IMG/VR virus record: IMGVR_UViG_3300045988_070061 | Location: 1-58,686 of that record | DNA: 58,686 bases | Direction: 5' to 3' (one strand) | DNA from: a virus | Shown: piece after piece, positions 2,627 through 45,180 of the stretch | Numbering within the stretch: the first letter of the stretch is position 1 | How the letters are laid out: every line of letters starts with the position of its first letter | Translations under genes and position numbers: made by a program | Notes under the pieces: generated by a model | The model's input: the letters and a program-made list of their open reading frames with translations, nothing else | Told to the model about the DNA's origin: nothing | Database searches by the model: none

Positions 2627-3034
2627 ATGAATAATCAACAGGCAATAGATAGATTGGTAAAACATCTCGAATATGGTTGGTCAGAACCGACAGTAGAAGC
2701 AATTGATATGGGAATACATGCACTGAAAGAAAGTCGATGGATTCCATGTAGTGAGAAGTTGCCGGAGAATAAAGAGATGAAATATAGTGAAAGATTAAAG
2801 CCGTGTCCATTCTGCGGTAAGAAAGCAGAATTTAGAACAAATACAACTGGAACGAACGGTGAAAATTTCAAGTATCGGTTTAACATTAGATGCAGAAATT
2901 GTGGAATGAATTCATCACATATCTATGATGTGGAGATAACTTTCAGAAATGGCGATTTCGTAATAATCGAAGATGGAAGAGATAAGGCCGTTGAGGAATG
3001 GAACAGTAGGGTAGAAGATGGGAAGACTGATTGA
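2627..3034 (+). CDS. Lar-family restriction-alleviation-like zinc-ribbon protein
   Basis: CPFCG...CRNCG ribbon followed by AVEEWNSR, the pattern I associate with the Lar family. Confidence 0.5.
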   Translation: MNNQQAIDRLVKHLEYGWSEPTVEAIDMGIHALKESRWIPCSEKLPENKEMKYSERLKPCPFCGKKAEFRTNTTGTNGENFKYRFNIRCRNCGMNSSHIYDVEITFRNGDFVIIEDGRDKAVEEWNSRVEDGKTD

Positions 3035-21661: not shown

Positions 21662-22948
21662 ATGGCAGACACATTTGCAATGAGTGGAAACACTCCTAAT
21701 TTTAGCGGTATGCTTTTTAACAAAGGTAATACCAAGACACCATTTTCGACAATGATTGGTGCGCACAGAAAATTTACAAATCACACAGAATTCGTAACAG
21801 GACAGGAATATGAGACAGCGGAAGGATCTCAGCCAAATATTTCGGAAGCTGAATCATTGACAGCGCCGGATGCATCTGTTCTGAAAAGAGATCAGAAGAC
21901 AAATGTTACTCAGATTTTCCAGGAAAGCGTTGGAATTTCTTACGGAAAGATGTCTAACATGGGAACTCTTTCAGGAATTAATGTTGCAGGACAGCAGGCT
22001 AATCCAGTTAGTGAAGAAGATTTCCAGATTGCTGCTAAAATGGCTAAAATCGGGCAGGACATTGAGTACACATTCCTTAACGGAAAATATCAGAAGTCAA
22101 CAGGTGACAATGTTCCGAATAAATCAAGAGGTCTCCTTACTGCAATTGAATCAAATATCGTTGATGCAGATGGAAAGATGCTTTCGTTTATGCTACTGTG
22201 CGAAGCTATGAAGTGCATTGATGATTCTAACGGAGATACAACAAACCTTGTAGTAGGGCTTGATTCTACCGGAAGATTACAGCTGAATGCCGATGCAGCA
22301 GCTAACGGATTAACAATCGTGAGTGCCGGAAGAGATATCAATGGTATTGCAGTGGATCAGGTACTTACACCGCTTGGAACTGTATATCTTAAGACTCTGA
22401 AATATCTTCCAACGGGAACAGTTGCATTGTTTGACCCATCTATCATGGCACCGGTTGAACAGATTGTACCGAAAAAAGGAAACTTCTTCCTTGAAGAACT
22501 TGCAAAAGTCGGTGCAGGAACAAAGAAACAGATCTTCGGACAGATTGGTCTTGATCACGGCCCAGAATGGTATTCAGCAAAGATTACTAATCTGAGCATG
22601 AGAACACCACACGATGAAGATATGGCAAGACGCTATGTACAGGTAAGTGCCAGTGCGCCGGCTGAACTTGGAACGCTCACAGTACAGTCAGCAGCTGGAA
22701 CAGCTGTGGGAGCAACAAAACTGACTGTAACACCTGCACTCACTTCCGGAAATTCTTATAAATATAAAGTGTCCGATGAAGAGACTAAAGTTGAAGCTGG
22801 ACAGAATGTTCGTGTTTGGAAGTCTTGGGACGGTAAGTCAGATATCGTAGCAGAGAGTGGAAAACATATCATCGTTGCTGAATGCGACAAGAACTATGAG
22901 GTTTTAAAGGCCGGAAGTACAACGGTAACTGCAAAAGCCGAAGGTTAA
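21662..22948 (+). CDS. Major capsid protein with a C-terminal Ig-like extension
   Basis: 428 aa in the expected position. The C-terminal ~90 aa are beta-rich (LTVQSAAGTAVGATKLTVTP...), like Ig-like decoration domains. Confidence 0.7.
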   Translation: MADTFAMSGNTPNFSGMLFNKGNTKTPFSTMIGAHRKFTNHTEFVTGQEYETAEGSQPNISEAESLTAPDASVLKRDQKTNVTQIFQESVGISYGKMSNMGTLSGINVAGQQANPVSEEDFQIAAKMAKIGQDIEYTFLNGKYQKSTGDNVPNKSRGLLTAIESNIVDADGKMLSFMLLCEAMKCIDDSNGDTTNLVVGLDSTGRLQLNADAAANGLTIVSAGRDINGIAVDQVLTPLGTVYLKTLKYLPTGTVALFDPSIMAPVEQIVPKKGNFFLEELAKVGAGTKKQIFGQIGLDHGPEWYSAKITNLSMRTPHDEDMARRYVQVSASAPAELGTLTVQSAAGTAVGATKLTVTPALTSGNSYKYKVSDEETKVEAGQNVRVWKSWDGKSDIVAESGKHIIVAECDKNYEVLKAGSTTVTAKAEG

Positions 22949-26011: not shown

Positions 26012-26391
26012 TTATTCCTATCAGTTTTACACAATTTACGCATGATTACTGGTTGCCAATAGCGGCAAGATGCGGAATAAGTTATAGAGAGTTTTGGGAT
26101 ATGACACCCAAAACTCTTTTAATTTATAAACACCAAAAAGAGTTGGAAGAGGCACGGGAAACCGAGTTGACAGATGTATCTGCATGGATGACTGGTGCTT
26201 ATATTTCAAAAGCAATTAGCTGCTTCCTTAGTAATGATGAAACATATCCAGAAAAGAATGTGTTTTTTAATGCTGACCAATTCGAACTTACAGATGATGA
26301 TATCGAAGAAATCATTTCGGAAAACACGCAAATTGCGGCAGCAAATTTTTCAGAATGGGCAAAGGTGGCAAATGAATCCAAAGGTAGGTGA
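25673..26391 (+). CDS. Tail assembly chaperone frameshift fusion (gpGT-like, about 239 aa)
   Basis: A -1 slip at 25936-25942 joins residues 1-90 to the 25942-26391 frame (ORF-track entry 26053-26391). Confidence 0.5.
25936..25942 (+). promoter_or_regulatory. -1 programmed frameshift slippery heptamer T TTT TTC
   Basis: In the zero frame as gaT TTT TTC. The -1 frame is open from 25930 to 26391. Confidence 0.6.
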
Positions 26392-26399
26392 GAGCAATA

Positions 26400-29300
26400 A
26401 TGCCAGATGAAATTGACAGACTTGAGATAGCCATTGAAACAGAATCAAATCGAGCAAACAGATCACTTTCAGGAATGGAAAGAAGATTAAATCGAATCGC
26501 AGATAGTCTTGAAAAAGTTGTTGCTCTTGCATCCGGCATCGGAGAAATTGGAGAGTTTGATTTAAGTGGGTTTGATAAATTCACAAGTGCTATTGACAAT
26601 GCAATTAAAAAGAAGAACGACTTAGACAAAAAAGAAATCAAAGTTCGGACGAATCGTTCAGACTTGAAATACACAGAGAAATCATTGGATTCTATCTATA
26701 AAAAATACAGCAATGCGGGATTGAATCTTGATGTTTCCGGTATGGATGTATCGGAGCTTGAAAAAGGATTGAAAAACTCAGAAGCTACTGCAGCGAGATT
26801 GAAGGATAGATTAAACAAAAAAATTGCAATTGAAGGGACTGATCACCTAGGGAAGACCTTTGAAAGCATAATTTACGATATCCAGAAAGCTACCAATGAA
26901 GCGAATGTATATAAAAAAGCAATTGATGGGTTATCAGTAGAGCAGCCATCGTTTACGATTGAAAGAGATGGGAATGTTGTCAGCGAATTAAATCAAGAAA
27001 AACTTAGTATGGAATCTCTCGGTGAAAATGCAGAGAAAGTTTCCGATTCTATTGAAGATGTTTCTAATGAAATATCTAACATAGATAAAGGTGGGAATAT
27101 ATCAAAAATTTCTAGTAAATTTGATTATTTGAAAAATAAAGTTGGCGAAATAAAGAGCGGTCTTACAAAGGGCGGATTCGGAAATTATACAAAAAATTTC
27201 ATGGAAATGTTAAAGTTGCCAGAAACGGGAACTTCAACTCAAGGGGGAAAATTCAATAATATTCCACCTATGAAAGAAAATGGAGATTACGACACAGAAG
27301 CCATTCAAGAATACGTTGACTCTTTTGGAAAGGCAAATGCTGCGGCAAATAATTTTTCAGATCAAATAAAAGCCTTAAAAAAGGAACTTGAAGGTTTAAA
27401 AGGGCAAGGACTTGGTGAGGGTGACGAAGAATATGATGCAGTAGCGCAGAAACTTGCTGTAGTAACAGAACGGCGGAAAGAATACAACCGTTCAATGAAA
27501 GAAAAAGCAAAAAGCATTATAGCAAAAGAAGAAATCTCGAAGTTGCAGATAGCTGGAACTGCGTTAAAAGCACTTATTAAAAATGCCGGGAAATTGGGAT
27601 TGTCATTTGCAAAATTGTCGATCAGTGGGCTTTCGAAACTTCCGCAGATTGCTAAAGCGTCTGCAAATGCTTTTAAAGTATTAGGATCTGTGATTTCTAA
27701 GGCAAAGGACAAGCTCGGATTATTGCAGAAAGATTCCAATAAAGGAATGTCGTGGAAGAAAATGATTGGCTCTTCCATTTTATTTTCCACTGTTTTTGGA
27801 GCAATCAGCCAGATAAAAGAAGCGATTAAAGCCGGTTCTGATAATCTGGTTCAATATAGCTCTGCATACAACAAGAGCATATCAGGCATGGTTACTTCTT
27901 TATTATATCTAAAAAATGCGTGGGCCGCTGCTTTCGCACCAATTGTCAATGTAGTTGCACCGTATATATCGAAATTTCTTGATATGCTTGCCGGGGCATT
28001 AAATGCAGTTGGACAGTTCATGGGCTCATTGACTGGAAAGTCAAAAGTCGTACAAGCTAAAAAAGCATGGTTTGATTATGGGAAAAGCTTAGAATCAACA
28101 GGGAATAGTGCTTCAAAAACAGGAGATAAACTTAAAAAAGCAAAAAAAGATGCTAAGGATTTAACCAATTATACTCTTGGAATAGATGAATTACACGTTA
28201 TCCAACCAAGTAGTGATTCTGCAAATCAAGATTCTGGATCGGAAAAGTATACAGGCCCGTCCCCATCAGAAATGTTCGAAACATCATCTATTGATAAAAA
28301 TGTGTCTGATTTTGCAAAGAAAGTAAAGGATGCATGGAAAAAGGCTGACTTTACAGAAATCGGATCAATTCTCGGGACAAAATTAAAAAACTCTTTGGAT
28401 GGAATTGATTGGAACCCCATACAAGAAACTGCAGAAAAAATCGGAAAATCTTTTGGAACATTCATAAACGGATTCGTTGAAGTTGATGGACTTGGGGAGT
28501 CGATTGGAAATACTATCGGCGAAGCTTTCAATACCGGACTGGATTTGGCAAATTCGTTTTTAGATAACACAAAATGGGATGAAGTCGGAAAATTTATTGG
28601 TGATGGCGCAAATGGTGCCGTGAACACAGTTAACTGGACTGGAATAGGACATTTTATAGCACAAAAATGGAACGCTATTTTCGCAACAATAGGCGAAGCA
28701 GCCAGGACTTTTGATTGGAGTAATTTTGGCAAGAGCTTATCAGATAGTCTGAATCAATTTATTAGTGATTTCAATTGGTCTGAAAATGGAGCTAGGCTTG
28801 GAGACCTCGTAAAAGGAGTACTTGATACATTAATACAATTTCTTGAAAACACTAATTGGCAAGAACTTGGAAATGGAATTGCCGATTTTATTGGCTCTAT
28901 TGATTGGTCTGGAATTTTAACGAGATTGGCCGAAGGAATTGGTGCAGCACTTGGAGGACTCGCAGCGTTGTTGTGGGGTCTGATAGAAGATGCATGGAAA
29001 ACGGCTGTCAATTGGTGGAAAGATACTGCCTTTGAAGATGGTCATTTCACTATAGAAGGACTCTTTAAAGGAATTGCCGATGCATTAAGCAATGTAGGTG
29101 CATGGATAATAAATCATATATTCACACCATTTATTACAGGTTTCAAAGAAGCGTTTGGTATTCATTCCCCGTCAACTATCATGGCTGAACAGGGTGGCTA
29201 TATTATGGCCGGACTATATAATGGAGTTGTTTCTAATCTCGCAAAAGTACTTAAATTCTTTGGAGAATTAAAAGACCAGATTGTTGACAAATTCTCCGAC

Positions 29301-30836
29301 GTAGGGGAATGGTTTGGTGATAAATTTGGGGCAGCAAGAAAAGCCGTAACTGATAAATTCTCTGACATTGGCACATGGTTTGGCAGAAGAAAAGCTGACA
29401 TTCAGAATGCGCAGTCAAGCGTGTCAACCTGGTTCAGCACTAAATATCAGAGCGCAAGAGGATATGTGAACTCAGCATTTTCTAATGTTGGCAAATGGTT
29501 CGGTGGACGTAAATCTGATATTCAGAACAACATGAAATCTGTATCTGGATGGTTCAAGAGTACATTCCAGACTGCTTACAAAGGCGTAACAGATTCATTC
29601 GGAAAGATTGGAGATTTCTTCAAGGGTATTGGAAAGAAAATCAAAAAACCTATCATCGGGGCAATGAAAGCTATCCTCAATGGTGTCAACTGGGTATATG
29701 AAAAACTCGGTGGTGGAAAGAATCATTTCGATGTATCCAAACTGGACAAATACGCTAGCGGTACAAATGGTGTATCACATGATACTGTCGGTATCGTGAA
29801 CGATCAAGCCGGTAGCACCTATCGTGAAATGGTACAATTCCCGAACGGAAAGACAATCATTCCAAAGGGACGTAATGTCATGTTACCAATGCCAAAAGGT
29901 ACGAAAGTTCTTCCGGCAGACCAGACCGCTTCATTAATGAATATGCCACATTTCAAAAAAGGAATCGGAGATTTCTTTGGTGGCGCATGGGCGAAATTCA
30001 AAGACTTCACAGGAAATATTGCTGATTATATCAGTAATCCTAAGAAGTTGGTGCAAATGGCAATTGATAAGTTCACGGACTTTTCAAGCTATCTGGAACC
30101 GGGATTGTCAATGGCAAAAAATGCGGTTAGAGGTACTGTAGGAATTGCTACGAAGTTCATAAAAGACAAGCTGAAAGGCTTTGGTGGAAGTGGTGTTAAT
30201 TACAAACCATCTGCCGGTGTGGAGCAGTGGCGTGCTACTGCAAAGAAAGCACTGGAATTGACAAACCAGTTTACAGAAGCGAATTTGAATCGCTTGCTTA
30301 TGCAGATGAAGTCAGAATCCGGCGGTAATCCGAATGCAATTAACAACTGGGACATTAATGCAAAGATGGGTATTCCGTCCAAAGGCTTAATGCAAGTTAT
30401 TGACCCTACATTCCGTGCATACGCTATGAAAGGGTTCGACAAAAACATCTATGACCCAATGTCAAATATCTTAGCAGCCATCAGATATACGCTGGCTCGA
30501 TATGGCAGTCTCGAAAGAGGATGGAAAGGTCATGGATATGCAAACGGCGGTTTCCCGAAAGTCGGAGAAATGTTCTATGCAAGAGAGAGCGGCCCTGAAC
30601 TTGTTGGAAAGATTGGAAACCGTTCAGCAGTAGTTAATAATCAGCAGATTGTTGATTCGGTAAGTAACGGAGTTTCAAGAGCGAATGATGAAACCAATTC
30701 ACTCTTAAGAACAATCATTGAATACCAGGAGTTACTTCTTAAGAAAGAAACAAGCGTAAATATGGATGGAAAAAGAATGGATAAGCAGATATCAAAAGCG
30801 CGTAGGAATACGGGCTTTTCTTTTTCGCCAACGTAG
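26400..30836 (+). CDS. Tape measure protein with a C-terminal lytic transglycosylase (SLT) domain
   Basis: About 1478 aa, helical and repeat-rich. MKSESGGNPNAINNWDINAKMGIPSKGLMQV matches the SLT catalytic region. Confidence 0.8.
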   Translation: MPDEIDRLEIAIETESNRANRSLSGMERRLNRIADSLEKVVALASGIGEIGEFDLSGFDKFTSAIDNAIKKKNDLDKKEIKVRTNRSDLKYTEKSLDSIYKKYSNAGLNLDVSGMDVSELEKGLKNSEATAARLKDRLNKKIAIEGTDHLGKTFESIIYDIQKATNEANVYKKAIDGLSVEQPSFTIERDGNVVSELNQEKLSMESLGENAEKVSDSIEDVSNEISNIDKGGNISKISSKFDYLKNKVGEIKSGLTKGGFGNYTKNFMEMLKLPETGTSTQGGKFNNIPPMKENGDYDTEAIQEYVDSFGKANAAANNFSDQIKALKKELEGLKGQGLGEGDEEYDAVAQKLAVVTERRKEYNRSMKEKAKSIIAKEEISKLQIAGTALKALIKNAGKLGLSFAKLSISGLSKLPQIAKASANAFKVLGSVISKAKDKLGLLQKDSNKGMSWKKMIGSSILFSTVFGAISQIKEAIKAGSDNLVQYSSAYNKSISGMVTSLLYLKNAWAAAFAPIVNVVAPYISKFLDMLAGALNAVGQFMGSLTGKSKVVQAKKAWFDYGKSLESTGNSASKTGDKLKKAKKDAKDLTNYTLGIDELHVIQPSSDSANQDSGSEKYTGPSPSEMFETSSIDKNVSDFAKKVKDAWKKADFTEIGSILGTKLKNSLDGIDWNPIQETAEKIGKSFGTFINGFVEVDGLGESIGNTIGEAFNTGLDLANSFLDNTKWDEVGKFIGDGANGAVNTVNWTGIGHFIAQKWNAIFATIGEAARTFDWSNFGKSLSDSLNQFISDFNWSENGARLGDLVKGVLDTLIQFLENTNWQELGNGIADFIGSIDWSGILTRLAEGIGAALGGLAALLWGLIEDAWKTAVNWWKDTAFEDGHFTIEGLFKGIADALSNVGAWIINHIFTPFITGFKEAFGIHSPSTIMAEQGGYIMAGLYNGVVSNLAKVLKFFGELKDQIVDKFSDVGEWFGDKFGAARKAVTDKFSDIGTWFGRRKADIQNAQSSVSTWFSTKYQSARGYVNSAFSNVGKWFGGRKSDIQNNMKSVSGWFKSTFQTAYKGVTDSFGKIGDFFKGIGKKIKKPIIGAMKAILNGVNWVYEKLGGGKNHFDVSKLDKYASGTNGVSHDTVGIVNDQAGSTYREMVQFPNGKTIIPKGRNVMLPMPKGTKVLPADQTASLMNMPHFKKGIGDFFGGAWAKFKDFTGNIADYISNPKKLVQMAIDKFTDFSSYLEPGLSMAKNAVRGTVGIATKFIKDKLKGFGGSGVNYKPSAGVEQWRATAKKALELTNQFTEANLNRLLMQMKSESGGNPNAINNWDINAKMGIPSKGLMQVIDPTFRAYAMKGFDKNIYDPMSNILAAIRYTLARYGSLERGWKGHGYANGGFPKVGEMFYARESGPELVGKIGNRSAVVNNQQIVDSVSNGVSRANDETNSLLRTIIEYQELLLKKETSVNMDGKRMDKQISKARRNTGFSFSPT

Positions 30837-34512: not shown

Positions 34513-35193
34513 ATGAATATATTATTTTTAAATCAATCAGAAACGGTTACAGCAACTGTAAAGAAATTAAGTGTACACCTTATCGAGATAACCGGGACAG
34601 AACCAAATACATCCGGTTTTCACCTACTGAATAATGCTGGTAATGTATTTGGAAAATATGATGGGTTCACAACATTATACCGTGAACTGGAAGATGGATT
34701 TATTCTTTCTGACGATGGAAGTGTATATGTTGAACCGATTGAACCGGAACCAGAGCCAGAACCGGAAATCAGTCTTGATGAAGTGAAAGAAGCTAAGGTC
34801 GCAGAGATGAACGACATACAGCAGAAGCTCATAGCACAGGGAGTTGATGTTACTCTGTCTGATGGCAGTAAAGAACATTTCTCATTGACTGAGCGTGACC
34901 AGACTAGCCTTGTTGGGTTACAGGCACAGGTCGCAATCGGAGCTGAGAATATTCCTTGGCATACTTCCGATGAAGATGAACACTGCAAATTCTACAGCAA
35001 TGCAGATATGGCAAAAATCACTTCGTCTGCACTATCCTATGTGACATGGCACGTGACTTATTTCCGTGACCTCCGCATTTTCATTCGTTCTCTGGAAAGC
35101 AAAGAAGAGGTTGAACAAGTTACCTACGGAATGAATATTCCAGAAGCATATCAGTCTGAGCCACTGAAAGCAATGTTGGCTCAGAAATCATGA
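34513..35193 (+). CDS. DUF4376-domain protein (copy 1)
   Basis: ...HFSLTERDQTSLVGLQAQV...YSNADMAKITSSALSYVTWHVTYFRDL... Paralogous to 38408-39058. Confidence 0.55.
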   Translation: MNILFLNQSETVTATVKKLSVHLIEITGTEPNTSGFHLLNNAGNVFGKYDGFTTLYRELEDGFILSDDGSVYVEPIEPEPEPEPEISLDEVKEAKVAEMNDIQQKLIAQGVDVTLSDGSKEHFSLTERDQTSLVGLQAQVAIGAENIPWHTSDEDEHCKFYSNADMAKITSSALSYVTWHVTYFRDLRIFIRSLESKEEVEQVTYGMNIPEAYQSEPLKAMLAQKS

Positions 35194-35600
35194 AGAAGTT
35201 AAGACCGCTGATTCTGTTTGGGATTGGTGGCCTGATTTACGTGCTGATAGAGCTAATAGCAAGAGGACGTAGCCATTGGTCGATGTTCATCGTTGGTGGT
35301 TTGGCGTTCTTCCTTATTGGTTGTATCAACGAAAAATGCCGGAAGATGCCACTGGTAAGGCAGATGTTGATCGGTGCGATTGTGATTACTACATTGGAAT
35401 TTGTATGTGGTTGCATCGTGAATCTATGGCTCGGTTGGAATGTATGGGATTACAGCAATATGCCGTTCAATTTACTTGGTCAGATATGCTTACCATTTAC
35501 CGTAATATGGTTTTTCTTATCGGCAGTGGCGGTTGTCTTGGATGATTGGATAAGACATATATTGTGGGGCGAAGATATACCACATTACAAATGGAGGTAG
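35190..35600 (+). CDS. Polytopic membrane protein (CmpB / putative ABC-transporter type IV-like, 4 TM)
   Basis: 136 aa with four hydrophobic helices, WNVWDYSNMPFNLLGQICL motif, ATGA-coupled to the upstream gene. Confidence 0.5.
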   Translation: MKKLRPLILFGIGGLIYVLIELIARGRSHWSMFIVGGLAFFLIGCINEKCRKMPLVRQMLIGAIVITTLEFVCGCIVNLWLGWNVWDYSNMPFNLLGQICLPFTVIWFFLSAVAVVLDDWIRHILWGEDIPHYKWR

Positions 35601-35944: not shown

Positions 35945-36907
35945 GTGGTCGAACCGGTCAACGACATTTTTGAAATCGACCCGGAAACCCGTGTGATTAC
36001 AGTCCCGGCATCCGAAAAGCTGTTCGGTGTAGCAAATGATGGGAACTCCGAAAGGAAGCATTTTCGATGTCCAAAAATCGTAGGGGATAACATCGACCTG
36101 TCTACGATGCACCTGTACATCAATTACCAGAATGCCAACGGGCAGAAGTATCCTTATCTGGTAGAGGACATACGGACAGATGGCGACTATATTACATTTT
36201 CGTGGCTGATCGGCCCAGATGTGGTTGCATATAAGGGACAGATTAAGTACATCGTATGCGCCAAAAAGGGAGATGGAACAATTCCGGAATGGAATACCAC
36301 CCTTGCAGAAGGTACTGTACTGGAAGGTCTGGAAGCTACAGATGAGGTGGTGAAACGAAATCCGGATATCATCGAACAGATCTTGACAAGACTTGATAAC
36401 GTAACAGAAATCCCACAGGAAAAGGTAACAGAAGCGGTATCTACCTATATGGAAGCGAATCCAATTAATGTGCCGAAAAACTTATCTGACCTAAAAGAAG
36501 ATGCGGAACACCGTACCGTTACAGATAAAGAGAAACAGTCGTGGAATAACCGACAAGCACTAACAATCACATATGGCGGTAAAACTCACGTCTATGATGG
36601 CAGTGAAGCCATTGCCATCACCATAGAAACAGGCGGTATAGAGCGTATCGAAAAACTTGCTACAGACACCACAGTAACCTTAGAGCCTAACAAACTCTAT
36701 GTATTCCCGGAAATGACATCATTAACCTACACCATCGGAGAGGGAACGGGAGAGATCCATTTTATTTTTAAAAGCGGTGCAACAGCAACAAGAGTAGTGC
36801 ATCCAGCCGGTGTAAATATCGGGAGCTTTACGGTAGATGCTAACAAAATCTATGAGGTGTCGATTCTTGAGGGCTTGCTGACGAGCCAGAATTGGAGCGT
36901 GAGCTGA
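35945..36907 (+). CDS. Baseplate upper-protein-like adaptor (tentative)
   Basis: 320 aa with a GTG start. The N-terminal pattern (VPASEKLFGVANDGNSERKHFRCPKIVGDNIDLS...) recalls BppU-N-type domains. Confidence 0.4.
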   Translation: MVEPVNDIFEIDPETRVITVPASEKLFGVANDGNSERKHFRCPKIVGDNIDLSTMHLYINYQNANGQKYPYLVEDIRTDGDYITFSWLIGPDVVAYKGQIKYIVCAKKGDGTIPEWNTTLAEGTVLEGLEATDEVVKRNPDIIEQILTRLDNVTEIPQEKVTEAVSTYMEANPINVPKNLSDLKEDAEHRTVTDKEKQSWNNRQALTITYGGKTHVYDGSEAIAITIETGGIERIEKLATDTTVTLEPNKLYVFPEMTSLTYTIGEGTGEIHFIFKSGATATRVVHPAGVNIGSFTVDANKIYEVSILEGLLTSQNWSVS

Positions 36908-37386
36908 TGAAACGTAGAAGAATATTAGGGAGTGAGGCAGAAAGTATGATAAATGAAGAGTTTGAATTATTAGGCGAAATTGATGTGTCAAATTTTGCAT
37001 TTGTAAATTCTGTTATGTTTGAAAAGACCTGTGACTGCTCAGAACTGTTGTTGATATGGACAGATATGGAAAATTCGACTAATACAGATTCTGCGGTTAT
37101 GGTAAAGATTAATGATATTGCGGCAGATTGTGGAGCACCTAGAACATCTAAGAAAGGAAGCAAAAAGAACGGATATACATTATATAAATGTTTGAACGGG
37201 TGCGGAACAATATCAGTATCTCATACCGGAGCTGGTAGCAAAACAATGTATAGTGGCAATGCAGGGAATGTTATGATTCCTTACAATTTGATGCCGATTG
37301 CGGAGAAATTTAGGAAAATAAAAATCTACAACGGTGGAACACAATATTATGCAACATCTGGCACTATAAAAGTTTACGGGAGGTAA
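36907..37386 (+). CDS. Small tail-tip paralog 1 (MKRRRILGSEAE...), no repeat tract
   Basis: Its ATG overlaps the upstream stop (TGATG). 159 aa. The N-terminal RRRxL motif is shared with the next two genes. Confidence 0.55.
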   Translation: MKRRRILGSEAESMINEEFELLGEIDVSNFAFVNSVMFEKTCDCSELLLIWTDMENSTNTDSAVMVKINDIAADCGAPRTSKKGSKKNGYTLYKCLNGCGTISVSHTGAGSKTMYSGNAGNVMIPYNLMPIAEKFRKIKIYNGGTQYYATSGTIKVYGR

Positions 37387-37392
37387 GTTGAC

Positions 37393-37521
37393 ATGAAATA
37401 CAGAATAACACACAATCTTGTCAGTCAGTCAGTCAGTCAGTCAGTCAGTCAGTCAGTCAGTCAGTCAGTCGATGATACTGTAGCTGATTCACTCTTGTCA
37501 AGAACGGCGGTGACGATATGA
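37393..37521 (+). CDS. 42-codon leader ORF containing the (GTCA)n tract
   Basis: GGGAGG lies 9 nt upstream of ATG 37393. The TGA at 37519-37521 overlaps ATG 37518 (ATGA). Confidence 0.4.
   Translation: MKYRITHNLVSQSVSQSVSQSVSQSVDDTVADSLLSRTAVTI
37420..37470. repeat. Perfect tetranucleotide repeat (GTCA)12 + GTC
   Basis: 51 nt counted directly. Confidence 0.95.
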
Positions 37522-37976
37522 GCCGCCGGAGAATGATGCTTATGAATGGACAGGAGGAGAATGAGATGAAAGAATGGAAAACATTAGATACCGTTGTTCT
37601 GAAAGAAGATGCGAAAACTATTACAGTCAAAATTCCAGATGCAAATGAAATAACAGTACTATTCTGGGGGAGAGAGAACAACGGTGATGATAGCATTAGT
37701 GGCACAGGAGTGGGGTCTGATGGACTAAGAATAAATGATAAAGGAGTATCAAATTATCCATTGACATATCTGAGGAAAGCAGGAAGTGAATATTATACAA
37801 AGATTACAGCGGAAATTATAAATGGATTTTTGGATGGAACAATATCAAAAAAAGGAAATAATGAACTTGTAGGATTTCAAAATCTTTTGACGAATGTAGA
37901 ATCCATAAAAGAAATATCGCTCGTTACGAACAATTTATTCAAAACAGGCAGTAAAGTAACGGTATTATATCGTTAG
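37518..37976 (+). CDS. Small tail-tip paralog 2 (MSRRRMMLMNGQEENE...)
   Basis: 152-aa ORF with a weak SD of its own, start coupled to the leader ORF. Confidence 0.55.
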   Translation: MSRRRMMLMNGQEENEMKEWKTLDTVVLKEDAKTITVKIPDANEITVLFWGRENNGDDSISGTGVGSDGLRINDKGVSNYPLTYLRKAGSEYYTKITAEIINGFLDGTISKKGNNELVGFQNLLTNVESIKEISLVTNNLFKTGSKVTVLYR

Positions 37977-37995
37977 ATAAGGAGTTGATGTTAAA

Positions 37996-38403
37996 ATGCT
38001 GACAGCACAGCACAGCACAGCACAGCACAGCTTAAGGCGTAGGTTGCTTAATGCACAAGAAGAAACAAACGAATGGCTATATGAAGCTTACCTAACCGAT
38101 ACTGGAGAGTGGTACGGCAAGCGGTGTCCGGCTATTGTATTCAGTGTAAAACAAGGAGAACAGTATTATATCGAATGGAGCAATGTTAGAACACAGAATA
38201 AATACATCTATGATATGCGTAGATGCGGTGGAGCGTACTTGACCTATGTTCCAAATCAGATTGCAGAATCTGGAAGCATTGAGATTGTTATTCCATCAGA
38301 CGGCACACTGTATGTCGGATGTGGTTTCAATAATAAATTTTCTCACGGTGATATCGGTGCTGCTAGCTTCGATGGAGATTATATTCGAATAAGAAAGGAG
38401 TGA
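37996..38403 (+). CDS. Small tail-tip paralog 3 (ML[TAQHS]2LRRRLLNAQEETNE...)
   Basis: 135-aa ORF. The pentanucleotide tract occupies codons 3-12. Confidence 0.55.
   Translation: MLTAQHSTAQHSLRRRLLNAQEETNEWLYEAYLTDTGEWYGKRCPAIVFSVKQGEQYYIEWSNVRTQNKYIYDMRRCGGAYLTYVPNQIAESGSIEIVIPSDGTLYVGCGFNNKFSHGDIGAASFDGDYIRIRKE
38002..38031. repeat. Perfect pentanucleotide repeat (ACAGC)6
   Basis: 30 nt counted directly, inside the 5' end of the 37996-38403 CDS. Confidence 0.95.
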
Positions 38404-38407
38404 TTAA

Positions 38408-39058
38408 ATGCACGCAAAATTACAAAACGGGTGTATTCGGAGTGCACCCAAAACCATTACTTTGGATGGAAAAACAATCAACAATCCGCTCCAGGAAGAA
38501 CTGGAACAGTTAGGATATAAACAGGTGGTGTACACAGATATGCCTGCTGAGGTGACGGATGGCAAGCACTGGGAATCGGAGTGGACGGAGGAAGAGAATG
38601 CGATTAGGCAGGTGTGGACACTGGTAGACGATTACGACTTAGAGCAAATCAGAACTCTTAAGAAAAGTGAAATTTCAGATGCTTGCGAACAGACAATTTA
38701 TAATGGAATTGATGTTGAAATGTCTACAGGAACACAACACTTCTCTCTCACCGAAAAAGATCAGATCAATATATTCGGATTACAAGCAACTATTGAATCC
38801 GGTGAAACACAGATTGAATATCACAGTGATGGCAATCCTTGTATATACTATAGTGTTGAAGATATTCAGAAACTAATTGCTGCTGCAATGGGATTCGTAA
38901 AATATAATACTACATATTGCAATAGCTTAAATGTATGGATTAGCAAAGAAACGAATGCGCAGACAATTAGTGAAATGTATTATGGAATGGAAATTCCAGA
39001 AGAACATCAATCAGAAGTTCTTAAGAACTATATTAGAATTAAAACAAAAGATTTGTAA
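38408..39058 (+). CDS. DUF4376-domain protein (copy 2)
   Basis: ...QHFSLTEKDQINIFGLQATIESGE...YSVEDIQKLIAAAMGFVKYNTTYCNSL... Paralog of 34513-35193. Confidence 0.55.
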   Translation: MHAKLQNGCIRSAPKTITLDGKTINNPLQEELEQLGYKQVVYTDMPAEVTDGKHWESEWTEEENAIRQVWTLVDDYDLEQIRTLKKSEISDACEQTIYNGIDVEMSTGTQHFSLTEKDQINIFGLQATIESGETQIEYHSDGNPCIYYSVEDIQKLIAAAMGFVKYNTTYCNSLNVWISKETNAQTISEMYYGMEIPEEHQSEVLKNYIRIKTKDL

Positions 39059-39182
39059 AAGATGGCGGTATTTTTTACTGCTGTCTTTTTTATTATATAA
39101 ACAGATGGAGGAAACATATGGATATCAGAGCGGGCCCGCAAGGTCTTTTTTATACATATTTTGAGAAAGAGAGACGGAAACA

Positions 39183-39485
39183 GTGAAAGAGTTTTTGATA
39201 AATACTTATACGATAGTTCTTCCTATAGCACTGGGATATATTGTCTGGCTGTTAAAAAATCAGAAAAGAGACAGGGATGCCAACAGCAAAGGAACGATGC
39301 TTTTACTTCGTGTACAGTTGATTGAATATCATAGCAAGTATATGCAGATGGGTGATATCCCGTCTTATGCTTATGAAAATTTCTGCGAGATGTACGAAGC
39401 ATATCATGCGCTCGGTGGAAATGGAATGATAACTAAAATGATGCATGAAATTGAAGAATTGCATTTAAAAAAGAAAGGTGATTAA
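39183..39485 (+). CDS. Membrane-anchored protein of the lysis cassette
   Basis: 100 aa with a GTG start and an N-terminal TM helix, directly upstream of the holin. Confidence 0.4.
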   Translation: MKEFLINTYTIVLPIALGYIVWLLKNQKRDRDANSKGTMLLLRVQLIEYHSKYMQMGDIPSYAYENFCEMYEAYHALGGNGMITKMMHEIEELHLKKKGD

Positions 39486-39487
39486 CT

Positions 39488-39781
39488 ATGGAACAGATTA
39501 TGAATTATGTAAAACCGGAACTGGTAGTAGTGGCAGTTGTACTGTACTTTGTTGGAATGGGGCTGAAACAGTCACAGGCCGTGACAGATAAATATATTCC
39601 GTTGGTTCTTGGAATCATTGGAATTGTGATTTGTGGAATCTACGTGATTGCAACCTGTAGCCTGTCTGGTATGCAGAATATTGCAATGGCGGTATTTACA
39701 GCAGTGGTACAGGGCGTGCTTGTAGCCGGATTAAGTACATATGTGAATCAGATTTTTAAACAGCTTAATAAAGAAGAATAA
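39488..39781 (+). CDS. Holin
   Basis: 97 aa. The pattern VKPELVVVAVVLYFVGMGLKQS...DKYIPLVLGIIGIV...GVLVAGLSTYVNQIFKQ is typical of Firmicute phage holins. Confidence 0.75.
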   Translation: MEQIMNYVKPELVVVAVVLYFVGMGLKQSQAVTDKYIPLVLGIIGIVICGIYVIATCSLSGMQNIAMAVFTAVVQGVLVAGLSTYVNQIFKQLNKEE

Positions 39782-39830
39782 GAGGGTGAGAAATCATCCT
39801 CTTTTTTAATAGATGAAAGGAGAACTCATT

Positions 39831-40889
39831 ATGGGATGGACAGAATATGAGAAGAAATTAAAGGAATGGTACGGATATAGCGAAGCAAAGAACCAGGATG
39901 ATATTATCATCGACATTTACAACAAACAGCGTCCGGCTGGTTCCTACAAAATGACACATACAGACCCTTGGTGCCATGCAACAGTATCAGCAGCAGCTTA
40001 CGCTTCTGGAAATGCCGGTAAGGTACCAAATACCTGTTATTGTCCGACAGGTATTAATATATGGAAAAAGTGGGGCAAATGGGTAGGACGTTACACTAAT
40101 GCGTACAACCCACAGCCGGGATACATCATCTATTATGACTGGAATAAAGACCTGATTTCCGACCATGTTGGAACCATTATTGCACGAAACGGAAACATTT
40201 TGACAGTTAGAGAGGGAAATCGAAATGATATGCTCTGTGACCGTCAGATTAACGCAAATTCACCGTTGATTATTGGATATGGTATTCCAGACTGGGGTGG
40301 AGCAACAAAAGCACCTGTAGTGACAGTTCCGACACATGAGGAAACTAAACGTACATGGTTACAGATTGGAGATGCCGGAGCAGAAGTCAAGGATGTACAG
40401 AACAAGCTTATTGCTATAGGTTATTCATTACCTTCCGGTGCAGACGGGAAATACGGAAAAGAAACCTATACGGCTGTTAAGAAGTTCCAGCATAATGTAA
40501 ACATCAAAGAGGATGGTCTGGCCGGTGAAGTAACACGTGCAAAATTGAACAATGCTTACAACACACGATCAGCTGCGAAAGCAAATAATTCATGGGTTGC
40601 TAGATTACAGGCTGCCTGCAATGCACAGGGATTCTCAAATCAGAGAGTTGATGGAATTGCCGGACCGAATACATTAGCTGGCTGCCCGACATTAGGAACT
40701 GCTTCAAAAGGTTCTATCACAAAGCTTGCACAGGAACGTCTCAATGCACTTGGCTACAATTGCGGATCCGCAGACGGCAAAAACGGGCCAAAAACTCAAA
40801 AAGGAATTAAAGCATTCCAGAAAGCAAAAGGTCTTCCAGCGAACGGAATCGTCGATAGAAAGACGTGGAAAGCATTACTCGGGCTGTAA
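39831..40889 (+). CDS. Endolysin: CHAP-like amidase/peptidase plus peptidoglycan-binding repeats
   Basis: PWCHATVS...DHVGTII catalytic Cys/His context. Three PG_binding_1-like repeats (e.g. DGKNGPKTQKGIKAFQKAKGLPANGIVDRKTWKAL). Confidence 0.75.
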   Translation: MGWTEYEKKLKEWYGYSEAKNQDDIIIDIYNKQRPAGSYKMTHTDPWCHATVSAAAYASGNAGKVPNTCYCPTGINIWKKWGKWVGRYTNAYNPQPGYIIYYDWNKDLISDHVGTIIARNGNILTVREGNRNDMLCDRQINANSPLIIGYGIPDWGGATKAPVVTVPTHEETKRTWLQIGDAGAEVKDVQNKLIAIGYSLPSGADGKYGKETYTAVKKFQHNVNIKEDGLAGEVTRAKLNNAYNTRSAAKANNSWVARLQAACNAQGFSNQRVDGIAGPNTLAGCPTLGTASKGSITKLAQERLNALGYNCGSADGKNGPKTQKGIKAFQKAKGLPANGIVDRKTWKALLGL

Positions 40890-41440: not shown

Positions 41441-41500
41441 GCATTTATATTGAACATACAAAAGCCCCGAAAGCATTGATTTTCCGGGGCTTTTTTGCTA
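41405..41500. other. Predicted attP region
   Basis: The gene fragment diverges from the MiaB pattern at ~41420, and the serine integrase gene ends at 41498. The crossover core is not identified. Confidence 0.35.
41462..41497. terminator. Bidirectional terminator
   Basis: AGCCCCG/CGGGGCT stem flanked by A-run and T-run, between convergent genes. Confidence 0.6.
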
Positions 41501-43216
41501 TCTGTATAATAATGTGTGGGTTAATCCATTCTTGAAAACAATCTCTGTAATATGCCTGTCCATAACTGTGATATGGTCAATAATGGAGTTCATAAGTGTT
41601 TTCATTGCTTCTTCATCCATCATTGCGAGTTCGGAATACTCTATATTCCCACCACTGTTAATTTTGTGCGAGATAAGGAATTGAGATGCGGACTTAATGA
41701 ATGCTGCCTGATCAACATTTTCTGAGATAGAAGATGAGTCTAGGCTCTTAATGCTATTTCCCAATTTCACCTTATCAACCTCTAATTTTGTTTTCATTTC
41801 AAGAAATTCTTTTTCGTCCATTGCATCATCATCGAAGAGGTATGCCTTTTTCAATCGCTCCAAAGCACGATCTGTTTTTTGGAGTTTTTCTTGCAGCTCT
41901 TTTTTCTTTTCCGCTGTATCAGTATTTTTACCATCTTTACTAACTGGTTTACCAGATAAAGTTTCTGTACCGGAACGACCATATAGCAAATCAATTGTAT
42001 CCTGTAAGCTTGATTCAGATATTCCGGCCACGTCTGTGAAATCAATATGAGAGAGTATAACTCTTTCCAATGATTCAGTATCTTTGATGAATCTCCTACT
42101 TTTAGATGCATCAATAATAGCTGCTATATAATTTATCATGAACGGACCAATCTTTACATCGCTGACATTCAAGTTATCGCAATGTTTTTTCTGGTACTTG
42201 CCGGTGCAAGCGTAAGATGATGGTCTGAATCCATTTCCTCTACGCCCATCTTTGGATGTTACTTGATAGTTTGAGCCACATTTTCCACAAACTATTAATC
42301 CGGCAAATACATTACATCTTTTTCGTATCGGGTGGAAAGCAGAAGTATTTCTCTTTTTGCAATTCATATCCATCCTACGGTTGACTTCATTCCATATTTC
42401 GGGATCAACCAAAGGTGGAAATACGCCATCCATATAGATAACTTCTTCATCAGATTTTCTTTTGCCTCTTGCACTTTCCCTATAGTTGTAGCGATAGTCG
42501 CCTTTATTGATCGGATTCCGCAGAAAATCAGCAACAGTCTTAGATGTCCATTCGCCACCTCGCTTGGTCGGAATGTTATGAGAGTTATTATAATCCCGGA
42601 TAGTAACAGATGAACCACCGTCCAAATACATCTGGTACATGGCTTTAGCATAAGGAGCTTCTTTCTTGGAATGTACGGGGCGTTTATTTTCTTCGTCCCA
42701 GTCCCAACCGTAAGGAACTCTTGCGCCATTCCATTGTCCGCTTTGCGCTCTGCCTATCATTACGTCTGTAACACGCTCAGACGTCAATTTACGCTCTAAT
42801 TCGGCGAACACCAGTATAATCTTAAGCATAGCTTCCCCCATTGCGCTAGATGTATCAAATTGCTCGTTCAGCGAGATGAATGTAACATCATTGCGCTTGA
42901 AATTATCATACATAATAGAAAAATCTACCAAGTTACGTGAGATACGATCTATTTTATATACGATCACATGAGACACAAGTCCGGCTTTTACCTTTTCCAT
43001 CATTCGCTCAAATGCCGGACGTTTGGTGTTCTTGCCAGATTTACCTGCATCCTCAAATATTTCAATTCGTTTTTTATCAATGTGTAGCACGTGTTCGCAA
43101 TATGCTTTCAATTCCTTTTTCTGGAATGGAAGAGAGTCTTTGTCGACCTGATATCCTGTTGATACACGGACATACAGTGCCACTATTTTTTCTTTCTGAT
43201 TCGTCATTTTATTCAT
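41498..43216 (-). CDS. Large serine recombinase (integrase)
   Basis: 572 aa. VALYVRVSTGYQ catalytic-serine motif, resolvase domain, recombinase domain, CGKCGSNY zinc ribbon, coiled coil. Confidence 0.9.
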   Translation of the reverse strand: MNKMTNQKEKIVALYVRVSTGYQVDKDSLPFQKKELKAYCEHVLHIDKKRIEIFEDAGKSGKNTKRPAFERMMEKVKAGLVSHVIVYKIDRISRNLVDFSIMYDNFKRNDVTFISLNEQFDTSSAMGEAMLKIILVFAELERKLTSERVTDVMIGRAQSGQWNGARVPYGWDWDEENKRPVHSKKEAPYAKAMYQMYLDGGSSVTIRDYNNSHNIPTKRGGEWTSKTVADFLRNPINKGDYRYNYRESARGKRKSDEEVIYMDGVFPPLVDPEIWNEVNRRMDMNCKKRNTSAFHPIRKRCNVFAGLIVCGKCGSNYQVTSKDGRRGNGFRPSSYACTGKYQKKHCDNLNVSDVKIGPFMINYIAAIIDASKSRRFIKDTESLERVILSHIDFTDVAGISESSLQDTIDLLYGRSGTETLSGKPVSKDGKNTDTAEKKKELQEKLQKTDRALERLKKAYLFDDDAMDEKEFLEMKTKLEVDKVKLGNSIKSLDSSSISENVDQAAFIKSASQFLISHKINSGGNIEYSELAMMDEEAMKTLMNSIIDHITVMDRHITEIVFKNGLTHTLLYR

Positions 43217-45082: not shown

Positions 45083-45105
45083 AGCTTTTCCTTTCTTAAA
45101 GCAAA

Positions 45106-45180
45106 CTTAGAAAACTATGCTATTATATGTTGACAAGCTTAGAAAACTATGCTAACATACAGACATAGCTTAGAAAACTA
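45106..45180. promoter_or_regulatory. Three direct operator copies CTTAGAAAACTA(TGCTA) spaced 32 and 31 bp
   Basis: Copies start at 45106, 45138 and 45169. Confidence 0.65.
45130..45158 (+). promoter_or_regulatory. Rightward early promoter (PR-like)
   Basis: TTGACA-17 nt-TAACAT, with the spacer filled by the second operator copy. Confidence 0.55.

Follow-up and report, generated by a model that had tools for sequence, protein, structure and literature searches.

A pentanucleotide tract at the start of a tail-module gene

The DNA analysed here (the window) comprises positions 1 to 58,686 of the IMG/VR virus record IMGVR_UViG_3300045988_070061 and contains three tandem paralogous genes, designated slots 1, 2 and 3, between an upstream tail-protein gene and a DUF4376-domain gene (Table 1). 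The subject of this analysis is a pentanucleotide repeat at the 5' end of the slot-3 gene. The beginning of this gene reads ATG(37996) CTG (ACAGC)6 TTA AGG CGT AGG TTG CTT, which encodes M L (TAQHS)2 L R R R L L. Tandem Repeats Finder (period 5, 6.0 copies, 100% matches) and direct reading of the letters agreed on the six perfect ACAGC units behind the ATG, coding for (TAQHS)2, that had been noticed earlier in a sequence-only reading of this DNA.

The tract is a perfect simple-sequence repeat (SSR) far longer than base composition predicts. The (ACAGC)6 pattern matched once in the window, even with three mismatches allowed, and in none of 100 dinucleotide-preserving shuffles; in 200 first-order Markov (Markov-1) random sequences, the longest tract of 4–6-nucleotide (nt) units had three copies, with four copies reached once. 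Exactly two longer tracts of this class are present in the 58.7-kb window, (GTCA)12 at 37420-37467 and (ACAGC)6, and both are located at the 5' ends of adjacent paralogues.

The in-frame open stretch that includes the tract extends from 37981 and contains one ATG, 36 nt 5' of the TTA codon. Because the 5-nt unit is not divisible by three and the sole start lies upstream of the tract, changes in unit number shift the frame of the downstream open reading frame (ORF). Both frames in which the gene is not read through (OFF, as opposed to the ON frame) stop at most four codons past the tract, as T-TAA (38033) and TT-AAG-GCG-TAG (38040). The AAGGAGTTGAT context around the Shine-Dalgarno-like site is conserved among relatives. 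A transcriptional role of the tract, for example as a promoter spacer, was considered and rejected, since the tract lies inside an ORF that begins 19 nt from the upstream gene and promoter-like sites are no commoner here than in shuffled sequence.

Table 1 Features at the slot-3 locus of the window
Feature	Position	Strand	Remarks
Upstream tail-protein gene, 320 amino acids (aa)	35945..36907	+	conserved C-terminus ..LEGLLTSQNWSVS; presumed docking partner of the paralogues
Slot-1 paralogue, 159 aa	36907..37386	+	MKRRR..., no repeat tract; start overlaps the stop of the upstream gene (TGATG)
Slot-2 leader ORF, 42 codons	37393..37521	+	(GTCA)12.75 at 37420-37470; TGA overlaps the slot-2 ATG (ATATGA)
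Slot-2 paralogue, 152 aa	37518..37976	+	MSRRR...
Shine-Dalgarno-like AAGGAG	37979..37984	+	11 nt 5' of the leader ATG; direct sequence reading
Slot-3 gene, probably phase-variable, 135 aa	37996..38403	+	disordered N-terminus and beta-sandwich; from ORF, AlphaFold2, homologues, dN/dS
Leader start ATG CTG (M L)	37996..38001	+	sole in-frame ATG upstream of the RRR motif
(ACAGC)6 pentanucleotide tract, probably hypermutable	38002..38031	+	codons 3-12 of the 135-aa ORF; (TAQHS)2 in the ON frame
TTA AGG CGT AGG, L-RRR motif	38032..38043	+	common to the paralogues; opens the conserved N-terminal segment
TAA stop	38033..38035	+	reached at unit numbers 1 mod 3 (e.g. 4, 7, 10); sequence
TAG stop	38040..38042	+	reached at unit numbers 2 mod 3 (e.g. 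5, 8, 11); sequence
In-frame TTG	38044..38046	+	possible internal or restart codon in OFF alleles; start chosen by gene callers in OFF genomes
DUF4376-domain gene	38408..39058	+	PHROG family annotated 'tail fiber protein'; closes the operon
Terminator-like hairpin	39057-39089		after the DUF4376 gene

Variation of the tract among related loci

Related loci were collected by protein-guided scans, which returned 29 loci from IMG/VR and 25 from human-gut metagenomes (64–97% protein identity), and by exact-protein look-ups, which contributed 11 more, giving 65 related contigs in all. A repeat tract occupies the slot-3 position in about 45 related loci, and pure ACAGC tracts consist of 3, 4, 5, 6, 7, 8, 9, 10, 11 or 15 units. 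The 5- and 7-unit variants that the sequence-only reading had anticipated in relatives were both found within this range of 3–15 (five units in L004 and L045, seven in L064). After removal of duplicates, the 26 distinct pure-pentanucleotide alleles comprised 12 ON and 14 OFF, with ON exactly at multiples of three; the proposal that gain or loss of one unit shifts the frame of the 135-aa ORF is thus matched exactly among the relatives. The window allele, with six units, is ON. Leader ORFs of 9–24 aa terminate at the TAA in L032, L033, L039, L041, L049 and L064, and leader ORFs terminate at the TAG in L003, L004, L006, L013, L031, L045 and L050. An exact-flank pattern scan of IMG/VR also detected a relative with (ACAGC)4ACAGT (25 nt), whose ATG frame meets the TAG.

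In every OFF locus the downstream ORF is intact (123–130 aa). The median pairwise ratio of nonsynonymous to synonymous substitution rates (dN/dS) was 0.21 between ON alleles, 0.21 between OFF alleles and 0.19 between ON and OFF alleles, which indicates that OFF alleles are not decaying genes and that purifying selection acts on the ORF in both states. More than 20 public protein clusters start with MLN[AT]QEE... at the internal TTG (e.g. P0024, P0039, P0047, P0049, P0053, P0059, P0070 and P0095); for annotation, these clusters are evidently OFF alleles recorded as shorter proteins from a spurious internal start. N-termini of the family in the protein database carry (TAQHS)1-4, (TDRQ)n or (SQSV)n.

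Differences of whole units were also present between genomes that are otherwise the same. L064, a 312-kb contig (ENA ERZ27271579) that contains the prophage within bacterial sequence and in which the gene is called from TTG 38044, showed no mismatch to window positions 36517-39903 over 3355 aligned bases, and differed only by one additional ACAGC unit (seven, OFF) and eight fewer GTCA units (−32 bases). L065 and L062 (ERZ27271580) have six units, with zero and one mismatches to the window, respectively; L066, compared at the tract contexts, likewise has six. The consecutively numbered assemblies ERZ27271579 and ERZ27271580 therefore carry seven and six units, respectively, at most an indirect hint of frequent switching, although the relationship of their samples is not known. 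Further pairs were L019 and L049 (three units, ON, and four, OFF), with identical coding sequence and identical 500-nt flanks on both sides; L038 and L041 (nine, ON, and seven, OFF) and L051 and L052 (six, ON, and eight, OFF), each with identical coding sequence; L003 and L032 (11 and seven units), with flanks 100% and 99.8% identical; and L020 and L035, with (ACAG)9 and (ACAG)7 between identical flanks. Since near-identical pairs differ in unit number, the tract changes faster than kilobases of flanking sequence gain substitutions. Among the 65 related contigs, 13 end at most 30 nt from a tract (L002, L008, L010, L017, L032, L034, L040, L047, L058, L059, L061, L063 and L066), as would be expected if mixed tract lengths within samples interrupt the assembly graph, though this is no proof of such mixtures; phase-variable genes are known to break contigs (PMC4235727).

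The tetranucleotide tract in front of slot 2 varies as well: in otherwise identical genomes, 12.75 GTCA units were counted in the window, 4.75 in L062, L064 and L065, and at least 6.75 in L066, where the contig ends. Within one clone-like lineage, the combinations of GTCA and ACAGC units were 12.75/6 in the window, 4.75/6 in L065 and 4.75/7 in L064, which means that the ACAGC tract varies independently of the GTCA tract. The idea that the two tracts together give up to four virion states is borne out as to this independence; a place in the virion is suggested by gene context only, and GTCA is at most a putative equivalent of the ON/OFF switch. The GTCA tract works otherwise than the sequence-only reading had assumed: it lies in a separate leader ORF, not inside paralogue 2, and its length moves only the leader stop relative to the paralogue ATG. 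The leader stop overlaps the slot-2 ATG (+1 or +4) in the window, L009, L038, L044, L006, L023 and L051, and is located 37–45 nt upstream of it in L003, L004, L005, L013, L031, L041, L045, L056, L062, L064 and L065. The GTCA tract thus seems to switch translational coupling and not the reading frame of the slot-2 gene, and four states are plausible to the extent that such a putative coupling effect operates at the leader. A promoter-like TTGACA-17 nt-CACAAT (10 of 12 matches) is present at 37388-37416, 3 nt 5' of the GTCA tract, in a TTGACATGAA context that is conserved in relatives; such sites are not above chance in the region.

Repeats of other types occupy the slot-3 position in some lineages: (ACAG)4-10 followed by (ACAGC)1-2 in L005, L020, L035, L036, L042 and L044 (about 2955-3000), (GTCA)10 followed by (ACAGC)2 in L011 and L012 (2948-3000), and an interrupted tract in L043. 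The lineages with other repeats encode TDRQ or SQSV in place of TAQHS. At 17 tract-less loci (not de-duplicated), the gene begins ATG TTA AGA CGG AGA (MLRRR) and overlaps the stop of the upstream gene; these relatives start straight at MLRRR, which confirms that the tract has been inserted behind the initiator Met, ahead of the shared motif, as had been supposed from the window. The length of the (TAQHS)n peptide was discarded as the selected trait, given that 14 of the 20 longer alleles are out of frame and that TDRQ, SQSV or no peptide at all takes its place in other lineages. Repetitiveness itself, and not the peptide it encodes, appears to be what selection acts on.

The same region is a site of exchange. 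The coding sequences of L005 and L006 are identical, yet they are preceded by leaders and repeats of different types. The upstream flank of the window is 99.6–99.8% identical to those of L031 and L008/L009, and the downstream flank only about 90%; comparison of window positions 37500-38500 with L031, L008, L009 and L004 gave 97.8–99.8% identity over the 500 nt upstream and 90–95% over the 500 nt downstream. As identity drops across the tract, the leader and tract would also be a recombination joint, which suggests a breakpoint at which C-terminal bodies are swapped.

The slot proteins and explanations of the switch

The three paralogues of the window share M-x-RRR and an acidic E..E[WF] stretch and are otherwise 17–27% identical. 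In relatives, the layout consists of a 314–444-aa gene (..LEGLLTSQNWSVS), slots 1–3, the DUF4376 gene, the hairpin, and holin and endolysin genes, with one, two or three slots per phage. Slot 1 has M[EK]RRR, no repeat and a start that overlaps the stop of the gene before it, slot 2 a (GTCA)n leader and M[NS]RRR, and slot 3 (ACAGC)n fused to LRRR. The same body was found in slot 1, 2 or 3 of different phages, and the slot-3 body can be the sole, constitutive copy in one-slot phages. In the window, the slot-3 gene is 19 nt from its upstream neighbour, no promoter-like site is nearby, and a terminator is found only after 39058; from this arrangement, the gene is placed in the tail module between the tail genes and the lysis cassette, and is predicted to be co-transcribed with them.

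The slot-3 family comprises 159 homologues, with no Pfam domain on record among the 120 listed. In 50 homologues, R14 and R15 are invariant and R16 nearly so. The RRR motif was seen in 51 distinct 34-residue N-termini, from 70 distinct slot proteins collected, and the N-terminal motif x-RRR-[TILM][LM]..E.E..E[WY] precedes at least seven unrelated C-terminal bodies across the slots. AlphaFold2 modelled the 135-aa protein with a mean predicted local distance difference test (pLDDT) score of 70.6, as an eight-strand beta-sandwich behind residues 1–24 of low confidence (patchy to 42). Foldseek comparison of this model with PDB and BFVD gave nothing at an expect value (E) below 0.001; the best matches (E 0.008–0.05, template-modelling score at most 0.43; not significant) were beta-sandwiches of the carbohydrate-binding-module, lectin, cupin and PPC types. 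Apart from the family itself, a profile search against 1.84 billion representatives returned only weak matches, in multiple copies, to large adhesin-like proteins that have SpaA, PPC or SUEL-lectin domains. Searches of the three paralogues against Pfam, PHROGs, NCBIfam, PADLOC and PDB sequences gave no significant family, and matches to Tad3 and DUF5448 (E 0.09) were discarded as noise. Over its N-terminal domain, the upstream 320-aa protein shares 37% identity with the N-terminus of gp64, a 693-aa 'tail protein' of Faecalibacterium phage FP_oengus. The AlphaFold2 model of the 320-aa protein is poor (pLDDT 52), with a beta domain, helices and a second beta domain. The slot proteins are probably exchangeable distal tail or receptor-binding modules.

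We regard it as highly probable that (ACAGC)6 is a hypermutable contingency locus that switches one of three tandem paralogues in the late tail operon of a temperate gut phage. Slipped-strand mispairing during replication would add or remove 5-nt units; ribosomes would reach LRRR and the beta-sandwich only at unit numbers divisible by three (ON: 3, 6, 9 and 15), and in the other two frames they would stop at the TAA or the TAG just past the tract. Switching may be frequent and reversible within a clone, and a phage or prophage population would then always hold ON and OFF subpopulations, independently of the GTCA tract. The shared RRR-containing N-terminal segment could dock onto the upstream 320-aa tail protein, in which case switching would alter adsorption or host range. 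Directly supported are the frame logic, the unit-step changes in identical genomes, the coexistence of ON and OFF alleles with an intact, selected ORF, and the replaceability of the tract.

Several observations weigh against the contingency locus. Among alleles with at least four units, 6 are ON and 14 OFF, and an ON share of about one third (6/20) is also what neutral drift would give. In the one-slot phage L049 (four units, tract 2981-3000), which is otherwise the same as L019, the sole copy of the gene is OFF, and the protein is therefore either dispensable or the L049 prophage is, perhaps temporarily, defective. The in-frame TTG at 38044 could permit restart and yield a truncated product lacking RRR from OFF alleles. 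In the databases searched, neither the sequence nor the predicted fold of the slot-3 protein significantly matched a known receptor-binding protein.

The ON share, just as expected in the absence of frame preference, and the OFF copy of L049 would both suit a real mutational hot spot with no adaptive role, that is, a microsatellite tolerated in a dispensable accessory gene and drifting neutrally between ON and OFF. Yet the 58.7 kb contain just two 4–6-nt tracts, each at the 5' end of one of two neighbouring paralogues, three different repeat units occupy the same position in diverged lineages, stops follow the tract directly in both OFF frames, and the ORF is kept by purifying selection in either state; a dispensable gene should moreover gather further lesions, and none was seen in about 20 OFF alleles. 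We consider such neutrality very improbable. Artefacts of assembly or sequencing are an extremely improbable source of the length differences. Many contigs do break at tracts, and short-read assemblers could mis-size tracts of 55–75 nt; nevertheless, differences of whole 5-nt units recur in assemblies that were produced independently, by several pipelines and for several repositories (IMG/VR, ENA and Logan), identical alleles recur across samples (e.g. six units in the window, L062/L065 and L066), and the 6- versus 7-unit pair concerns tracts of 30–35 nt in k141_* contigs, a name that suggests MEGAHIT with a final k-mer of 141, far above the tract length. Illumina sequencing is reported to be similarly accurate at pentanucleotide repeats and in non-repetitive sequence (PMC4235727), which also argues against artefacts.

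Two further explanations accept the switch and differ in its product. If ribosomes that end the leader ORF at TAA or TAG restart at TTG 38044, there would be no true OFF state, and the tract would toggle between the full-length protein and an isoform without leader and RRR. The TTG is located 1 nt past the TAG and 8 nt past the TAA, with a weak AAGG 6 nt upstream; gene callers choose it, the neighbouring slot 2 appears to use a stop/start overlap, and the TTAAGGCGTAGGTTGCTT block is nearly identical in nucleotides across tract-bearing loci (CGC for CGT at one locus). Recent spread of the leader cassette by recombination can, however, explain the identity of this block, and a TTG with a 4-nt AAGG is a weak start. 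RRR is conserved as protein, because different codons encode it across the slot proteins, and a product lacking it would probably not be equivalent. No sign was found of a frame-independent translation start downstream of the tract, the alternative that the sequence-only reading had itself raised, and restart at the TTG seems quite unlikely. A real switch of a protein that is not part of the virion is unlikely to a lesser degree. The site just upstream of lysis genes is a common position for accessory ('moron') genes expressed from prophages, and the slot-3 gene is located there; its product could then serve, for example, superinfection exclusion or host-surface modification to the benefit of the lysogen. 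The lack of homologues or significant fold matches among known tail and receptor-binding proteins, the presence of several variants on prophage-bearing contigs of 200–312 kb and the OFF state of the only copy in L049 would agree with this. Against it stand the 19-nt gap with no promoter-like site near the gene, the overlap of slot 1 with the stop of the tail-protein homologue, and the PHROG 'tail fiber protein' family gene that follows before the terminator; a conserved N-terminal segment with swapped C-terminal bodies is also the modular layout of tail proteins, and the slot-3 protein had no detected signal peptide or membrane segment and no PADLOC match.

For the contingency locus as we prefer it, a wider picture has about an even chance of being right: a 'switchboard' in a widespread group of temperate human-gut phages, with Lachnospiraceae as probable hosts, in which one to three tandem alternative distal-tail modules share a common N-terminal adaptor and the extra slots are gated by GTCA, ACAG or ACAGC repeats, fused in frame in one slot and acting through a coupling leader ORF in the other. 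It would be the first heteropolymeric SSR contingency system in phages, and the mixed tail configurations of each burst or lysogen population would amount to bet-hedging on host range.

Known switching systems and the surroundings of the locus

The proposed switch follows the classical translational design, with opa and scl2 as its nearest parallels. In Neisseria, opa genes contain pentanucleotide coding repeats, (CTCTT)n, in the signal-peptide region. The slot-3 gene resembles them in having a 5-nt coding repeat near the 5' end, ON in one frame of three, and in the several paralogues with combinatorial states; unlike opa, which encodes a bacterial outer-membrane adhesin, it is a phage gene with the repeat between Met and RRR, and the two are not homologous. 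Opa phase variation is listed in PMC11868660. Streptococcus pyogenes scl2 (sclB) carries pentanucleotide coding repeats (CAAAA/AACAA) directly after the start codon (PMC3022705). Here the likeness extends to the Gram-positive setting, the position of the tract right after the start codon and early termination out of frame, whereas scl2 is a single chromosomal adhesin gene with termination at residue 89, and the OFF frames of slot 3 stop at most four codons past the tract. The tetranucleotide contingency loci of Haemophilus influenzae (PMC4235727) are likewise heteropolymeric, beyond composition expectation, located in the 5' part of reading frames and polymorphic in length between strains; those are surface-modification and restriction-modification genes of a Gram-negative pathogen.

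Among phages, polyG tracts in the receptor-binding genes of Campylobacter Fletchervirus members are hypermutable (Sorensen et al. 2021, Cell Rep 35:109214, as summarized in PMC12823448 and PMC10877375). Phage-encoded SSRs that generate tail or receptor-binding subpopulations, and so hedge against variable hosts, would be common to both systems, receptor binding being putative here; in contrast to the homopolymeric G tracts of lytic myoviruses of a Gram-negative host, the present tracts are built from 4- and 5-nt units, lie at the extreme 5' end of tandem paralogues and belong to a temperate phage of gut Firmicutes. A survey of repeats of at least six bases in T2/T4 described contingency loci in genes such as agt and rIIA (Gomez, Barrick and Waters 2025, bioRxiv 10.1101/2025.10.21.683753), where frameshifts in phage SSRs are reversible and lead to phenotypic heterogeneity; unlike those homopolymer runs, long heteropolymeric tracts are concentrated here in the tail module. 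Alternative distal tail modules within a population are the likely outcome in other systems too. Phage P1 has an invertible tail-fibre segment. Mu inverts a tail-fibre segment (van de Putte et al. 1980), and diversity-generating retroelements are another such system (both as cited in PMC12823448); inversion is site-specific and retroelements act by mutagenic retrohoming, whereas repeat slippage would operate here. Neither an invertase nor a reverse transcriptase was seen next to the locus, and the only recombinase identified was the serine-recombinase integrase at 41498-43216.

The baseplates of the lactococcal phages TP901-1 and Tuc2009 combine BppU with BppL or BppA (PDB 4v96, 5e7t). For the upstream protein, structural alignments close to full length (239 and 237 columns) were obtained only with the 294–295-residue chains of 4v96, which we take to be BppU. 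The order of a tail protein of about 300 aa followed by small beta-sandwich proteins (135–165 aa) is similar, although the matches are not significant (E 0.056 to TP901-1 BppU, weak and from the pLDDT 52 model; Foldseek probability 0.16 for the small protein) and no sequence homology was found; a BppU-like upstream protein is a lead only, not a finding.

In a full-text literature search, no report was found of phage or prophage tail genes switched by 4- or 5-nt repeats, and the phage repeat-switch reports that were found cover only single-base runs, namely Campylobacter polyG and T-even homopolymers. Among bacterial pathogens, phase variation by repeats is textbook matter. What is new here, as far as checked, is not the mechanism but its carrier (a temperate gut phage), the type of repeat, the layout in several slots and the conservation across the family. 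Repeat-driven bet-hedging would thereby extend from bacterial pathogens and single-base phage runs to 4–5-base repeats in gut phages, with an abundant uncultured gut-phage family concentrating such repeats at the starts of genes for alternative tail modules. If the proteins are receptor-binding modules, temperate gut phages would hedge their host range by slippage, not by inversion or retroelements; this would account for the many apparent frameshifts, the truncated gene calls and the broken contigs that metagenomes show at these loci, and tract length in existing metagenomic reads would be a countable marker of phage-host dynamics.

Elsewhere in the window, genes were identified for an SPP1-type portal, an SU10-type capsid, a holin, a CHAP endolysin with peptidoglycan-binding domains and a large serine recombinase, and a 1482-aa ORF (26388-30836) upstream of the tail genes is likely the tape-measure protein. 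By this gene content, the window is identified as a temperate, siphovirus-type human-gut phage. Its host is probably a member of the Lachnospiraceae such as Dorea, as suggested by one protein from a metagenome-assembled genome labelled 'Dorea sp.' In one genome per GTDB species, the slot-3 protein had no match, and the only relative of the upstream 320-aa protein, in Ca. Mediterraneibacter, was 44% identical and had no tracts beside it. An exact look-up of the serine recombinase, meant to lead to the bacterial flank of the 312-kb contig, gave no entry. Among 50,697 GenBank phage records, no match was obtained for the 3.2-kb region around the tract in a DNA search or for the slot-3 protein in a tblastn search.

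Two paralogous DUF4376 genes of the PHROG 'tail fiber protein' family (34513-35193 and 38408-39058) bracket the locus, and a 136-aa membrane protein (35190-35600; PF06541, CmpB-like; phrog_20274) is encoded inside the tail module, which is unusual. The SU10-type major capsid protein (21662-22948) has a C-terminal S-layer SbsC-like domain (PF18316, E 4e-14) that could be a decoration of the capsid surface. A 32-nt tandem repeat (2.5 copies, 83% matches) at 45102-45180, in the early or regulatory region downstream of the integrase, could represent iterons or operator repeats.

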